In this document: positions 36,512-43,846 of the stretch, piece after piece
Layout of the letters: each line of letters opens with the position of its first letter
Position numbering within the stretch: the first letter of the stretch is position 1
The notes under the pieces: model-generated
Databases searched by the model: none
What the model saw: only the letters and a program-made list of their open reading frames with translations
Told to the model about the DNA's origin: nothing
Position numbers and translations under genes: made by a program
Assembly (NCBI GenBank): GCA_050700515.1
Contig: JBOHHD010000592.1
Coordinates: 1-45,931, forward strand
DNA length: 45,931 nt
Source: Pseudonocardiaceae bacterium
GTDB taxonomy: Bacteria; Actinomycetota; Actinomycetes; Mycobacteriales; Pseudonocardiaceae
Direction: 5' to 3'

Positions 36512-37128
36512 CCACTCTGCAGGACATTGTCATTCAGGCCATCATCGTACCTCATGACGGACCGTGGTTCTCCGGTAGCGGAACCTTCCAGGAGGTTTCA
36601 AACAGTACCGGAGTCGGCAGCTCGCAGTGTGCTGTAGGGATTGGTCAGCTATCCGGAAAAATTAAGGTGACCCAATTCACTCGCATCAGTTTCGTGATCG
36701 TCCACGATCGGTGAACCGTCCAACATTCCTCCGTTCAGGGAGATGATGCTGATCGGCGCGGCTCGGGCTAAGTCGACCTCGACATCCGAGTGACTCGATC
36801 GTTGCACTGCCCGAGATATCGATCTGAAACTTGGCAGATCACCGGAACGGGACGGGTCACGCTGCCTCGCTGTTGGCGGAACCTCACTGTTCGCGGAACG
36901 CTGTAGTACCTGAACGATCGAGCGGCACCGGCGGCACGGTCGTAGGCCAAGCCTACGTCATAAGTCGTACGACCGATCCTGCGCTGTGGCGCTGGTCGCA
37001 CATTGAAAATCCTCTCCTGGACTGACGACTGCTTTCGGAAGCCAGGACAACATCTACTTTCGTCGCTGGTTGCTCGGCTCCCCCAAGGTAAGAAGAGAGA
37101 GAAATCATGAAATCGGCTGGGCGTGCAG

Positions 37129-38565
37129 ATGCTTGACCTTCATACGCATCGATTGGAAAGAACCACCACCAGGTCGCATTTACTGGAGGAGTACGGAGTC
37201 GAGTTTCAACCAACGCCAGCGCATTGGGCGCCCAATTCGTGGCGCAGTCGGCCGGTCAAGCAGCAACCCGAGTGGCCCGATCCGCGTGGCGTGGAGCGAG
37301 TGACCGCTGAGATCGCCCGGCAACCTCCGCTGGTGCTGCCCGTCGAAATTCAAAGTTTGCAGCGGTCACTGGCCATCGTGGCCTCGGGTCGAGCGTTTTT
37401 GCTGCAGGCGGGTGACTGTGCTGAGCGGTTCAGCTCCTGCATCGAACACGAGGTGCGCAGCAAAATTCGGGTTATTCTGCAGTTGGCGATACTACTGACC
37501 TATGGATCCGGTATGCCCGTGGTTAAGGTCGGTCGGATCGCCGGTCAGCTCGCGAAGCCTCGCAGCAAGCCCACCGAATTCGTCGCCGGAAAGGAACTTC
37601 CGGTATTCCGTGGTGATATTGTCAACGGGCCCGAGCCGACGCCGGACGCGCGCCGCCCGGACGTGGAACGTATGATGCTCGCATACCACCATGCTGCGGC
37701 GACCTTGAACGTGTTACGTGCACTGACCAAGGAAGGGTTCGCCGACCTCGACCAGGTGCACGCGTGGAACCGGGAGTTCGTCCTCGACAGCCCAGCCGGT
37801 CGGGATTACGAAGAAATCGCCGACAACATCACCAGGGCGCTGCGATTCATGTCGGCGTGTGGTGCCGACGTGGCCGATCTAAGGGCACTTCGCCAGGTGA
37901 ATCTCTTCACCTCACACGAGGCGCTGTTACTACCCTTCGAACAGGCTCTGACCAGATTCGATACCGGATCCGGCTCTTGGTTCGACACCAGCGCCCATCT
38001 GGTTTGGGTCGGCGATCGCACGCGGGAAATTGACAGTGCGCATGTAGAATTCCTGTCCGGCATCGCCAACCCGATTGGCATCAAGGTTGGACCGTCCATA
38101 ACGCCCCCCCAGTTACGTGAACTGTGCGAGCGGCTGGATCCTTACCTTGTACCCGGTCGACTGGTCTTGATCTCCCGTCTTGGCGCTGACCGGGTCACCG
38201 AGTTGCTGCCGCCACTGGTACGTGCGATCCGAGTGACCGGCCGTTCGGTGGTCTGGGCATGTGATCCGATGCACGGCAACACATTCCGTTCGGAGAGCGG
38301 GTACAAGACCCGTCGACTCGTCGATATCACGGCGGAGATCGCTGGCTTCTTCGCCGTGCACAAGGAGGAGGGTACGCATCCGGGCGGGGTGCATCTGGAG
38401 CTGACCGGCGACGATGTCACGGAATGTCTAGGAGGTGAGAAGGAGGTATTGGACGTCCACCTGAGCACTCGGTACGAGACTGTGTGCGATCCACGGCTGA
38501 ACGCCACCCAGTCTATTGAGCTCGCCTTCCGAGTGGCCAAGTTGCTGCGAGATCACCACCGATGA
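37129..38565 (+). CDS. Class II (plant/AroG-Mtb type) 3-deoxy-7-phosphoheptulonate (DAHP) synthase
   Basis: SWRSRPVKQQPEWPD...AFLLQAGDCAERF...KVGRIAGQLAKPRS...GIKVGPS...ACDPMHGNT...HLELTG are class II DAHPS signatures. The start is ATG 37129 or GTG 37123. Confidence 0.9.
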   Translation: MLDLHTHRLERTTTRSHLLEEYGVEFQPTPAHWAPNSWRSRPVKQQPEWPDPRGVERVTAEIARQPPLVLPVEIQSLQRSLAIVASGRAFLLQAGDCAERFSSCIEHEVRSKIRVILQLAILLTYGSGMPVVKVGRIAGQLAKPRSKPTEFVAGKELPVFRGDIVNGPEPTPDARRPDVERMMLAYHHAAATLNVLRALTKEGFADLDQVHAWNREFVLDSPAGRDYEEIADNITRALRFMSACGADVADLRALRQVNLFTSHEALLLPFEQALTRFDTGSGSWFDTSAHLVWVGDRTREIDSAHVEFLSGIANPIGIKVGPSITPPQLRELCERLDPYLVPGRLVLISRLGADRVTELLPPLVRAIRVTGRSVVWACDPMHGNTFRSESGYKTRRLVDITAEIAGFFAVHKEEGTHPGGVHLELTGDDVTECLGGEKEVLDVHLSTRYETVCDPRLNATQSIELAFRVAKLLRDHHR

Positions 38566-38649
38566 CAACTCCAGCGGAAGATCGGCTGCTACATCGCTCT
38601 CCGGCACCGTCGGGTCGTAACCAGATCGACCGCATGAGGAAGAGGACTG

Positions 38650-42224: not shown

Positions 42225-43135
42225 ATTTGATCCAAGGCCGCTGCGAGATGCTGCAGCGGTGTGTTGTCGTGGGCGGCGCCGGCGCGGTCGGCGACATGTT
42301 CGCGCAACTGCTGGAAGATGCCGGAGCGCAGGTATGCGTCCTGGACATCACACCGCCTGATGTGGTGGGTTCAGCCAGACGCTTCGAGCGTGCCGACATC
42401 ACGATGCTCAACCAGCAGGTCCTCACGGAGTTGGGTGAGGCAGACCTGGTCCTGCTCGCCGTATCGGAGCGGGTGGCTCTTGCCGCGATCGCCTCGGTGC
42501 ACGAGGCATTGAAGCCCGGAGCGTTGCTCGCCGAGACACTTTCGGTGAAGTCCCGCGTCACGGCGGTAGTGCGCACCGACGCGCCGCGAACCGAAGTAGT
42601 AGGTCTCAACCCGATGTTTGCGCCCTCGCTCGGTATGGCGGGGAATCCGGTCGCTGCTGTCGTCACCCACGGTGGCCCACGCACCTGCGAGCTGCTCCGC
42701 CTGGTGACCGCCTGGGGTGGTCGGGTGGTGCGGATGGATGCCGAGGAGCACGACCGGGTGGTCACAGCGGTACAGGTCCTCACCCACGCGGCGGTACTCG
42801 CGTTCGGCTTCGCTCTGGCCGAACTTGACATCGGTATCGAGGAGTTGAGTGCGCTTGCATCTCCACCACACGCGATGATGCTGGCCCTGCTCGCACGCAT
42901 AGTCTCCGGAACGCCGGAAGTGTATTGGGATGTGCAATCCGCAAATCTGCGGGCGCCGGAAGCGCGGGAGGCACTCATCAGAGGAGCCCGACAGCTTGCG
43001 GACCATATCGCAACCGGAGACGAGACCGCGTTCGTCAAGGGATTGTTGCAGACGCGAGCAGCGCTGGGCGGGGAACTCGACCGATACCGAGAGCTCTGTG
43101 CGCAAGCCTTCGACTTACTGCGGCGTCCCCATTGA
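42221..43135 (+). CDS. Prephenate dehydrogenase family protein (PapC/CmlC-type 4-amino-4-deoxyprephenate dehydrogenase candidate)
   Basis: The Rossmann motif is [13 protein letters not shown]. The TyrA-like core is LNPMFAP...[14 protein letters not shown]. Its ATG overlaps the pabAB TGA (ATGA). Confidence 0.85.
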
Positions 43136-43174
43136 CCACATCCGTCTTAAGCCGATTTTTCGATCCCCACAGGG

Positions 43175-43846
43175 ATGAGGCATATGCCTGAGCTGTTGGT
43201 TCCTTTTCTCATAGTTACCTTATTGCTTATCATTTCACCTGGGCCGGATATGGCGCTGGTACTACGCAATGGTGCACGCAAGGGTGCCCCCGGGGCATGG
43301 TGGACTGGCCTGGGCTGCTGTGTCGGAAACACAGTTCACGCTACCGCAGCCGTGGTCGGTCTCTCGGCGACCCTGGCCGCATCCGCGACTGCGTACACGG
43401 CTATTAAAATCGCCGGAGCGGCCTACTTGGTGTGGTTGGGCGTACAGGCACTCTGGTCTTCACGGTCCCATCTTGGTATAAAGGCCACCAGTCGCCAACG
43501 GGTGTCAAGGCGCAACTCATCCGTTCTTGCGCCGCGACCAATGACGCACGGCTCCTGGTACAAAGATTTTCATCAAGGTATAATGAATGATTTGCTGAAC
43601 CCCAAGATCGCCCTGTTGTTTCTCACATTATTGCCACAGTTTGTCGCTGTGAATGAGCCTCGGGTCATCACTTCGATCAAGCTTGCTGCGATATTCGTTC
43701 TTATTTCGATTGTGTGGTGGTGGCTATTCTCGCTGGCGGTCGGTGGTATCGGGGGGATGCTGAGCCGTCAGTCTGTACGGGCGTGGTTCGAACGTGTGAC
43801 CGGTGTGGTACTTATCGGCTTGGGGGTGACGGTCGTTCTTGGTTGA
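43175..43846 (+). CDS. LysE/RhtB-family amino-acid exporter
   Basis: LLLIISPGPDMALVL, KIAGAAYLVWLG and NPKIALLFLTLLPQF are LysE-family signatures. The alternative start is ATG 43184. Confidence 0.85.
   Translation: MRHMPELLVPFLIVTLLLIISPGPDMALVLRNGARKGAPGAWWTGLGCCVGNTVHATAAVVGLSATLAASATAYTAIKIAGAAYLVWLGVQALWSSRSHLGIKATSRQRVSRRNSSVLAPRPMTHGSWYKDFHQGIMNDLLNPKIALLFLTLLPQFVAVNEPRVITSIKLAAIFVLISIVWWWLFSLAVGGIGGMLSRQSVRAWFERVTGVVLIGLGVTVVLG

Follow-up and report, generated by a model that had tools for sequence, protein, structure and literature searches.

Organization and base composition of the six-gene operon

In this study, we analysed a 45,931-nucleotide stretch of DNA from a Pseudonocardiaceae bacterium (contig JBOHHD010000592.1; hereafter the window), which carries a candidate operon for the synthesis and export of an N-oxygenated derivative of p-aminophenylalanine (PAPA). 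As noted in a preliminary description, six co-directional and closely spaced genes are located at positions 37123-43846 of the + strand, and profile matches confirmed the families that had been proposed for them. The first gene (37123-38565) encodes a class II 3-deoxy-D-arabinoheptulosonate 7-phosphate (DAHP) synthase, with 651.5 bits against PF01474 and 693.5 against TIGR01358 (cut-off 614.7). The second (38650-39627) encodes a CmlI-type non-haem diiron N-oxygenase of the AurF family (PF11583, 179.9 bits). It is followed by an AroQ-class mutase of the PapB/CmlD type (39674-40015; PF01817; TIGR01803 'CM-like', 90.9 versus a cut-off of 73.35), which is predicted to be a 4-amino-4-deoxychorismate (ADC) mutase, and by a fused PabA-PabB ADC synthase (40110-42224) with GATase, Anth_synt_I_N and Chorismate_bind domains (TIGR00553 pabB, 350.8 versus 328.4). 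The fifth gene (42221-43135) encodes a TyrA-family dehydrogenase of the PapC/CmlC type with PDH_N and PDH_C domains, a predicted 4-amino-4-deoxyprephenate dehydrogenase. The last gene of the operon (43175-43846) encodes a LysE/RhtB-family amino-acid exporter (PF01810, 110 bits, residues 17-221).

The open reading frames (ORFs) of the cassette lie 39-94 nt apart, with one overlapping pair, and form an operon of 6.7 kb in total. The overlap is the ATGA coupling described earlier between pabAB and the dehydrogenase gene; it is real, and the dehydrogenase start overlaps the stop codon of pabAB. The pabAB frame opens at TTG 39993 according to the ORF tool, and homologues of 704 aa favour ATG 40110 as the start. 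The operon is preceded by a non-coding leader of 611 bp (36512-37122, no strand assigned), with a guanine-plus-cytosine (G+C) content of 0.565 and no ORF of coding-like composition, which is presumed to be a promoter or regulatory region. The leader gave no Rfam match and no convincing sigma-70-type site, and a promoter/terminator scan of it stayed at chance level. Positions 36933-37071 of the leader were kept at 77% in a syntenic contig (L170). Antisense ORFs inside the island were considered as genes and rejected because they overlap strongly supported + strand genes.

The island had also been described as compositionally foreign, on the basis of 30/60 G+C at 40141-40200 and 44/60 at 10141-10200. 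Both counts were exact, and the overall composition pointed the same way, since the G+C content of the island was 0.586, versus 0.664 in the left flank and 0.645 in the right flank. The third-position G+C was 0.60-0.72 in the island versus 0.80-0.88 in purF, purM and dnaE.

The mutase, PabAB and dehydrogenase resemble a PapABC-type set

The reading of the mutase, PabAB and dehydrogenase as enzymes of the PapABC type was backed by their order, by their identities to a chloramphenicol-type cluster of Rhodococcus and by an active-site signature in the mutase. A metagenome scan with the dehydrogenase showed that the order chorismate mutase (CM)-like protein, PabAB, prephenate dehydrogenase (PDH)-like protein is common to about 40 loci in soil metagenomes. 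The identity between the window and the Rhodococcus cluster was 59% for PabAB (aligned from 40110), 57-62% for the mutase and 42% for the dehydrogenase. PabAB scored above the cut-off of TIGR00553 and below the cut-offs of all TrpE models. The motifs named in the preliminary description, Cys81 in LGVCLGHQG and Lys516 in PIKGT (numbered from the Met at 40110), were both found, and QFHPE was also present, so that the protein has the Cys-His-Glu triad and the PIKGT lysine by which an ADC synthase is recognised. This lysine is absent from anthranilate and isochorismate synthases.

The mutase passed TIGR01803 and was below the cut-offs of all true chorismate mutase equivalog models. At the positions of E. 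coli CM 11/28/39/48/51/52/84/88, it has R/R/K/Q/R/I/T/E (Q63, I67 and E103 among them in the window's protein), where E. coli CM has R/R/K/D/R/E/S/Q. The same pattern was found in 22 of the 22 mutases that were aligned from CM-PabAB-PDH triads, the Rhodococcus chloramphenicol-type cluster included, with I, V or M at position 52 and with Ala at position 84 in one of them. Asp48 and Glu52 contact the C4 hydroxyl in the structure of E. coli CM, and the replacements at these two positions would fit a 4-amino substrate. The dehydrogenase was far below the cut-offs of all prephenate dehydrogenase equivalog models. It has a Rossmann motif, GGAGAVG, at residue 18, and its His189 lines up with the histidine that H. 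influenzae TyrA (2PV7) has in its 'alrH' segment. The possibility that the two proteins are ordinary enzymes of Tyr/Phe synthesis had been raised at the outset; it is not supported, as neither reached any chorismate mutase or prephenate dehydrogenase equivalog cut-off. These results suggest that the cassette is likely to make the PAPA scaffold.

The closest other PapB-PapA-PapC triads (L102:7639-16039, L111:2215-16478 and L092:4784-10864) have dehydrogenases that are 47-58% identical to that of the window and carry no N-oxygenase gene. Each is accompanied by a class I/II aminotransferase and a major facilitator superfamily (MFS) pump, together with a double ATP-grasp L-amino-acid ligase or AMP-binding enzymes, and they may be uncharacterised PAPA-peptide pathways in soil actinobacteria.

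The N-oxygenase belongs to a distinct CmlI-type clade

The best solved relative of the oxygenase was CmlI (5HYG, 314.5 bits), well ahead of AurF (3CHH, 168.5 bits), and the identity to CmlI was about 49-55%. All seven diiron ligands are present, with E98, E133, H136, E195, H222, E226 and H229 at the positions of E101, E136, H139, E196, H223, E227 and H230 of AurF. The enzyme is probably active and of the arylamine type. It scored 186 bits on the AurF equivalog model NF045603, far from the cut-off of 620 that marks AurF proper.

The predicted pocket also differed from that of AurF. Phe90 and Asp93 of the window's oxygenase stand at AurF Tyr93 and Arg96, and Ser199 stands at AurF Asn200. Oxygenases that are 73-84% identical to it form a clade in which Asp stands in for Arg96 of AurF, and Ser or Thr for Asn200, apart from a single exception at either site. 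At the same two positions CmlI has Asn/Asn, and the relatives at 55-60% identity have His or Asn at the first and Asn at the second. Tyr93 and Arg96 of AurF are the ligands of the carboxylate of p-aminobenzoate (PABA). Asp93 would speak against PABA as the substrate, and we speculate that it could pair with a cationic alpha-ammonium group.

The clade at 73-84% identity was tight and came from metagenomes only; the next relatives dropped to 60%. An exact-protein look-up of the window's oxygenase returned no record. In a neighbour-joining tree, the oxygenases of the window, P0002 and P0003, all from a PAPA context, grouped together, and P0012 (73%), also from a PAPA context, was basal. The members located beside an adenylation enzyme and a carrier protein formed a derived group. 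Because the tree places P0012 at the base and the adenylation-carrier group as derived, the link between this oxygenase and PAPA genes looks ancestral in the clade. It is fairly probable that the oxygenase acts on an arylamine of the PAPA pathway.

The recurring clusters around the sister oxygenases (L082:8418-13390, L171:587-5417, L174, L175 and L176) contain a short-chain dehydrogenase/reductase, the N-oxygenase, an adenylation enzyme (TIGR01733-like) and a carrier protein of 88-97 aa (GGVIDSLG). They also hold an ectoine-synthase-like cupin, an acyl-CoA dehydrogenase, a DinB/MDMPI protein and DsbA, and no arylamine-forming genes were found within 10 kb of them. These neighbours indicate that an oxygenase of this kind can work in a pathway based on a carrier protein. 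The best relatives in cultured Streptomyces and Streptantibioticus (55-60%; L003:9168-10954 and L009:9087-12326) form a conserved pair with a TauD-family dioxygenase. A 436-aa protein without a Pfam match follows this pair in L009, and there are no PAPA or PABA genes near the pairs of L003 and L009.

The DAHP synthase and the exporter in other copies of the cassette

The DAHP synthase was 85% identical to the copy in a group of metagenome contigs, L084-L087. A role for type II DAHP synthases in gene clusters has been described (PMC5490192), and the enzyme of the window would provide an extra, presumably feedback-insensitive, entry into the shikimate pathway. The LysE gene is also the last gene of the cassette in L085-L087, with 80% identity. 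The exporter contains a full-length LysE domain, and its scores were below the cut-offs of the TIGR00949, LeuE, RhtB, RhtC, LysE and ArgO models.

The cassette is found in different flanking contexts

The same six genes, in the same order, were found in metagenome contigs that carry P0002, an oxygenase 84% identical to that of the window, and the nucleotide identity was 81-84%. The contigs L084-L089 come from the samples JGI 3300012678, 3300012684 and 3300012045 and ENA ERZ27252416, ERZ27252445 and ERZ27252449, and two further contigs treated below, L170 and L178, from SRR13645131 and SRR13378647. Nucleotide homology between the window and L084-L087 was confined to 37121-38588 and 38600-43841, that is, it stops at the borders of the cassette. 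In L084, the cassette is flanked at either end by the 3' part of an IS1380-family transposase gene that points towards it, at 1-165 and 8424-8672 (- strand). A 20-bp perfect-type hairpin is located after the LysE gene of the same contig (8238-8284).

In a second relative, L170 (P0003, oxygenase 84%), the cassette occupies the chromosomal site that it has in the window, adjoining a Trypco1 gene with 84% nucleotide identity. As the site is shared, the insertion predates the split of the window and L170 lineages. In L170, the oxygenase gene is intact, as is the beginning of the mutase gene. Its DAHP synthase gene is reduced to about 460 bp of fragments (L170:1746-2453, corresponding to window 36933-38064), which indicates that the DAHP synthase is dispensable. 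In a more distant relative, L178 (P0012, oxygenase 73%), the oxygenase gene is followed by a PapB-type mutase gene, and an adjoining fragment looks integrase-like as judged by eye. The foreign composition agrees with the earlier suggestion of horizontal acquisition. The event was not recent, because the cassette is found at the shared site in a relative with 81-84% nucleotide identity.

All six genes were under purifying selection, with dN/dS values of 0.12-0.29 between the window and L085 (0.14 for the DAHP synthase, 0.15 for the N-oxygenase and 0.19 for the LysE exporter). The six-gene set, including the exporter, was kept in at least three different flanking contexts. These results suggest that the six genes behave as an autonomous unit, a self-contained and horizontally mobile operon. 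The evidence for mobility comes only from the other copies of the cassette (L084 and L178); at the window's own borders, we found no tRNA gene and no direct or inverted repeats above chance, and there was no integrase or transposase in the window. We also considered whether a chloramphenicol-type cluster had decayed and left the cassette behind, and rejected this, as each of the six genes is intact and subject to purifying selection.

Among species-representative genomes there was no cultured carrier of the cassette; the best oxygenase relatives there were at most 60% identical, and none had a mutase gene and a dehydrogenase gene within 10 kb. A plasmid collection contained only chloramphenicol-type Rhodococcus clusters and PABA-type Burkholderia loci, and no such cassette. 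In the literature that we searched, neither a natural PAPA/N-oxygenase operon that stands alone nor p-nitrophenylalanine of natural origin was described.

Genes surrounding the operon

Outside the cassette, the window consists of chromosomal housekeeping DNA with purL, a GGDEF/EAL protein, a NACHT/WD40 protein, dnaE, purF, purM and a BKACE enzyme. The window's PurM was 75-84% identical to those of metagenome-assembled genomes (MAGs) of Pseudonocardiaceae, and its identity to the PurM proteins of Streptoalloteichus and Crossiella was about 70-73%; the host is thus an uncultured member of the Pseudonocardiaceae. The other neighbours are genes for an ADC lyase, a nitrobindin-like protein, a membrane protein, a Trypco1 protein and a GNAT protein, and a LuxR-type response regulator and a histidine kinase are encoded downstream of the cassette on the opposite strand. 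The GNAT gene (35972-36511) was tried as a further member of the cassette and rejected on account of its host-like composition and its absence from L170.

The host ADC lyase (PabC) gene lies at about 31767-32636 on the + strand, within the purF-purM housekeeping block, outside the cassette and 4.5 kb upstream of the island. Its product, an Aminotran_4 protein, scored 314 bits on NF005887 (cut-off 278), the match beginning at residue 138 of an ORF that opens at 31356, and its third-position G+C was 0.81. This enzyme could divert ADC made by the cassette to PABA. The nitrobindin/peroxynitrite-isomerase-like gene is located at 32909-33583 on the - strand. Between these two genes, the actinobacterial small RNA Ms_IGR-5 (RF02471) gave a full-length match at 32692-32900, with 99.5 bits versus a gathering score of 45. 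In a STAND-type protein of 1113 aa (17835-21176), a NACHT-associated inactive restriction endonuclease domain is combined with pentapeptide repeats and with a WD40 propeller.

When the large ORFs were scanned with Pfam and the 45.9-kb window was searched by tblastn with reference proteins, no nonribosomal peptide synthetase (NRPS), polyketide synthase (PKS), adenylation enzyme, carrier protein, CmlA-like protein, CmlP-like protein or dedicated class I/II aminotransferase was detected. The CmlP-like, CmlA-like, oxidoreductase, CmrA and NRPS proteins of Rhodococcus gave no tblastn match in the window at E <= 1e-3, and there were no condensation, AMP-binding or metallo-beta-lactamase (MBL) domains in the Pfam scans of its large ORFs. 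The preliminary description had stated that NRPS, PKS, tailoring and aminotransferase genes were missing from the island, and in these scans and searches this held for the whole window. ADC lyase is likewise absent from the island as stated, but the host-type gene described above lies a short distance upstream.

Proposed pathway and alternative explanations

We propose a route in which every chemical step is assigned from family membership. The class II DAHP synthase would raise the flux through the shikimate pathway, and PabAB would convert chorismate and glutamine to ADC. The PapB-type AroQ mutase would turn ADC into 4-amino-4-deoxyprephenate, and the PapC-type dehydrogenase would form p-aminophenylpyruvate from it by oxidative decarboxylation. 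A host aminotransferase would then give L-PAPA, and the CmlI-type oxygenase would oxidise the aryl amine, on either the keto acid or the amino acid, first to the hydroxylamine, then to the nitroso and finally to the nitro stage. The LysE-family carrier would export the amino acid. That the operon does all of this, diverting chorismate to PAPA, N-oxygenating the aromatic amine and exporting the product, we regard as evenly balanced between right and wrong. The end product would most likely be free p-nitro-L-phenylalanine or a closely related oxidised derivative of PAPA, perhaps a secreted antimetabolite. For export of free p-nitrophenylalanine itself, our expectation falls somewhat below that balance. 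More tentatively still, the cassette may represent a natural mobile pathway to free, secreted p-nitro-L-phenylalanine, a possible antimetabolite of Phe or Tyr in desert and soil Pseudonocardiaceae, with the clade that has Asp in place of Arg96 being a CmlI-type enzyme specific for an amino-acid arylamine. At present p-nitrophenylalanine is regarded as man-made and absent from nature.

Several points weigh against this proposal. Most other members of the oxygenase clade (73-82%) have no PAPA genes beside them and adjoin a carrier protein and a stand-alone adenylation enzyme, and these sister oxygenases, which share the pocket residues, might use a carrier-bound substrate. The operon has no aminotransferase gene, whereas the nearest other triads carry one. 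The visible DNA of this uncultured genome extends 37 kb upstream and 2 kb downstream of the operon, and an NRPS or ligase that uses the product could lie farther off. The exporter has no assigned substrate, because all equivalogs with a named substrate were below cut-off, and the extent of oxidation, to the hydroxylamine, nitroso or nitro stage, would not be readable from the sequence. According to a preprint, neither AurF nor CmlI had been shown to turn over free p-aminophenylalanine effectively, and among 21 additional homologues cloned there, only NO16, besides ObaC, gave p-nitrophenylalanine (10.1101/2021.09.29.462267). As ObaC is only 19-25% identical to AurF and CmlI (PMC5490192), the window's oxygenase is not of the type proven to act on free PAPA.

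The genomic setting of the sister oxygenases bears on a different explanation, in which the cassette is a split precursor sub-cluster that supplies PAPA or p-nitrophenylalanine to remote assembly enzymes, for example an NRPS, an ATP-grasp ligase or a stand-alone adenylation enzyme with its carrier protein, and the free amino acid is an intermediate only. Because the nearest relatives of the oxygenase, with the same Asp93/Ser199 pocket, adjoin an adenylation enzyme and a carrier protein of 88-97 aa, a remote consumer of the product remains plausible. Other PapABC triads also sit among AMP-binding enzymes, ATP-grasp ligases and MFS pumps. To our knowledge, all characterised PAPA branches, those of chloramphenicol, pristinamycin and obafluorin, feed larger pathways, and only 46 kb of the present genome is visible. 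On the other hand, exactly six genes, an amino-acid exporter among them, move together and are conserved across three or more flanking contexts. The exporter is itself under purifying selection, and an intermediate that stayed inside the cell would hardly call for an exporter of its own. The tblastn search of the window, in addition, gave no homologue of an adenylation enzyme, a carrier protein or an NRPS. We consider a split sub-cluster unlikely, yet serious enough to be kept in view.

A route without PAPA is also conceivable. PabAB and the host ADC lyase would make PABA, which the oxygenase would convert to p-nitrobenzoate as AurF does, and the DAHP synthase, mutase and dehydrogenase would belong to the ordinary tyrosine branch. 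The ADC lyase gene near the island is genuine, and AurF-family genes are found directly beside pabAB, without a mutase or dehydrogenase gene, in many genomes and plasmids. However, this lyase gene lies in DNA of host composition within a housekeeping block. The mutase has the triad-specific signature, which replaces the two E. coli CM residues that contact the C4 hydroxyl, and both it and the dehydrogenase miss the equivalog cut-offs of the true tyrosine-branch enzymes. The oxygenase is also far below the AurF cut-off on NF045603 and has Asp at the carboxylate-binding Arg96 of AurF. Taken together, these findings make the PABA route very improbable. Alternatively, PAPA itself might be exported while the oxygenase has an unrelated substrate or serves to protect the producer. 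The relatives of the oxygenase at 73-82% identity work in clusters without PAPA genes, so the oxygenase gene can function independently of the PAPA branch. In the operon, however, it lies between the DAHP synthase and mutase genes, a place that is kept in four lineages (the window, the L084 group, L170 and L178) down to 73% identity, and purifying selection acts on it as it does on the neighbouring genes. Export of PAPA with an unrelated oxygenase is, in our view, improbable.

PAPA could also be made as proposed and the oxygenase could halt at the hydroxylamine or nitroso stage, so that the product is an azoxy dimer or another N-oxygenated derivative of PAPA. AzoC, which has been described as a non-haem diiron N-oxygenase, takes its amine only to the nitroso analogue, and a non-enzymatic coupling follows (PMC6783550). 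The pocket of the clade, with Asp93 and Ser199, is unlike those of both nitro-forming enzymes, AurF and CmlI, and a sequence does not reveal how far the oxidation goes. In contrast, CmlI, the closest characterised relative, performs the full six-electron oxidation (PMC11775713), and the diiron ligands of the window's enzyme are identical to those of AurF and CmlI. An oxygenase that stops early appears quite unlikely.

Significance of a proposed stand-alone PAPA/N-oxygenase cassette

All parts of the cassette are individually known. What is new is the module on its own, as exactly six genes, with its own LysE exporter, mobile and with an oxygenase of a distinct CmlI-type clade. If p-nitrophenylalanine or another N-oxygenated derivative of PAPA is released, a nitroaromatic amino acid would be added to the short list of natural nitro compounds. 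A pathway that was published as a non-natural design would then already exist in nature. In that case, the 6.7-kb operon and its CmlI-type oxygenase would be available as they stand for producing nitrated amino acids, as needed in genetic-code expansion, and a candidate exporter for a nitrated amino acid would be at hand. The precursor module of chloramphenicol- and obafluorin-type pathways would circulate alone as a mobile unit, a plausible evolutionary building block for such clusters. If the cassette is a split sub-cluster instead, the finding would be ordinary.

Comparison with known systems

The five enzyme families of the chloramphenicol module, cmlE (DAHP synthase), cmlB (PabAB), cmlD (mutase), cmlC (dehydrogenase) and cmlI (N-oxygenase), are all present in the window. 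A complete chloramphenicol/corynecin-type cluster is located on the 592-kb mobilizable plasmid NZ_CP077418 of Rhodococcus qingshengii (L001:5357-19206). It comprises genes for a diiron oxygenase, an AMP-binding/NRPS protein, an MBL-fold protein, pabB, a dehydrogenase, a mutase, a DAHP synthase, an oxidoreductase, a LuxR regulator and cmrA efflux. Its oxygenase and DAHP synthase are 48% and 39% identical to those of the window, and the mutase signature is shared. The gene order differs between the two. The chloramphenicol-type cluster has a CmlP-type NRPS/AMP-binding protein, a CmlA-type MBL-fold beta-hydroxylase, an oxidoreductase and an MFS efflux pump, whereas the window lacks these and has the LysE exporter instead. 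The native substrate of CmlI is dichloroacetylated aminophenylserinol, which the cassette of the window cannot make.

In pristinamycin biosynthesis, the PabAB-mutase-dehydrogenase triad encoded by papA, papB and papC makes PAPA, which is N-methylated (papM) and loaded on an NRPS. A triad of this type is shared with the cassette; the pristinamycin cluster has neither an N-oxygenase nor a LysE exporter. The p-nitrobenzoate systems of the AurF type, as in aureothin and in Burkholderia glumae (L179), combine an AurF-family oxygenase with an ADC synthase, as the cassette does. They use PABA and have no mutase or dehydrogenase, whereas the cassette has both. In the Burkholderia glumae plasmid NZ_CP100299 (L179:9491-24855), pabB, pabA and the diiron oxygenase gene are followed directly by a very large NRPS/type I PKS gene, which suggests a hybrid product primed with p-nitrobenzoate.

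The obafluorin pathway of Pseudomonas fluorescens ATCC 39502 includes the PAPA genes ObaD-F, the type II DAHP synthase ObaM and the N-oxygenase ObaC, which acts early, on p-aminophenylpyruvate (PMC5490192). Its logic is that of the cassette, as a dedicated DAHP synthase, a PAPA branch and a diiron N-oxygenase lead to a p-nitrophenyl building block. Obafluorin biosynthesis also uses a threonine transaldolase, a thiamine diphosphate-dependent decarboxylase and an NRPS, none of which the cassette encodes. ObaC is set apart from the CmlI-like oxygenase of the window by its published identity to AurF and CmlI given above, and its host is a pseudomonad, whereas that of the window is an actinobacterium.

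A further counterpart is an engineered one. E. coli carrying pCola-papABC-aroG-ObaC/NO16 makes p-nitro-L-phenylalanine with the help of native aminotransferases, and the product was presented as a non-natural amino acid (Butler et al., 10.1101/2021.09.29.462267). This pathway matches the cassette gene for gene, with a DAHP synthase, PapA, PapB, PapC and a diiron N-oxygenase, and leaves the final transamination to host enzymes, as we propose here. The engineered pathway is man-made, has no exporter and uses oxygenases of the ObaC type, whereas the cassette of the window is natural and mobile and carries its own LysE exporter.

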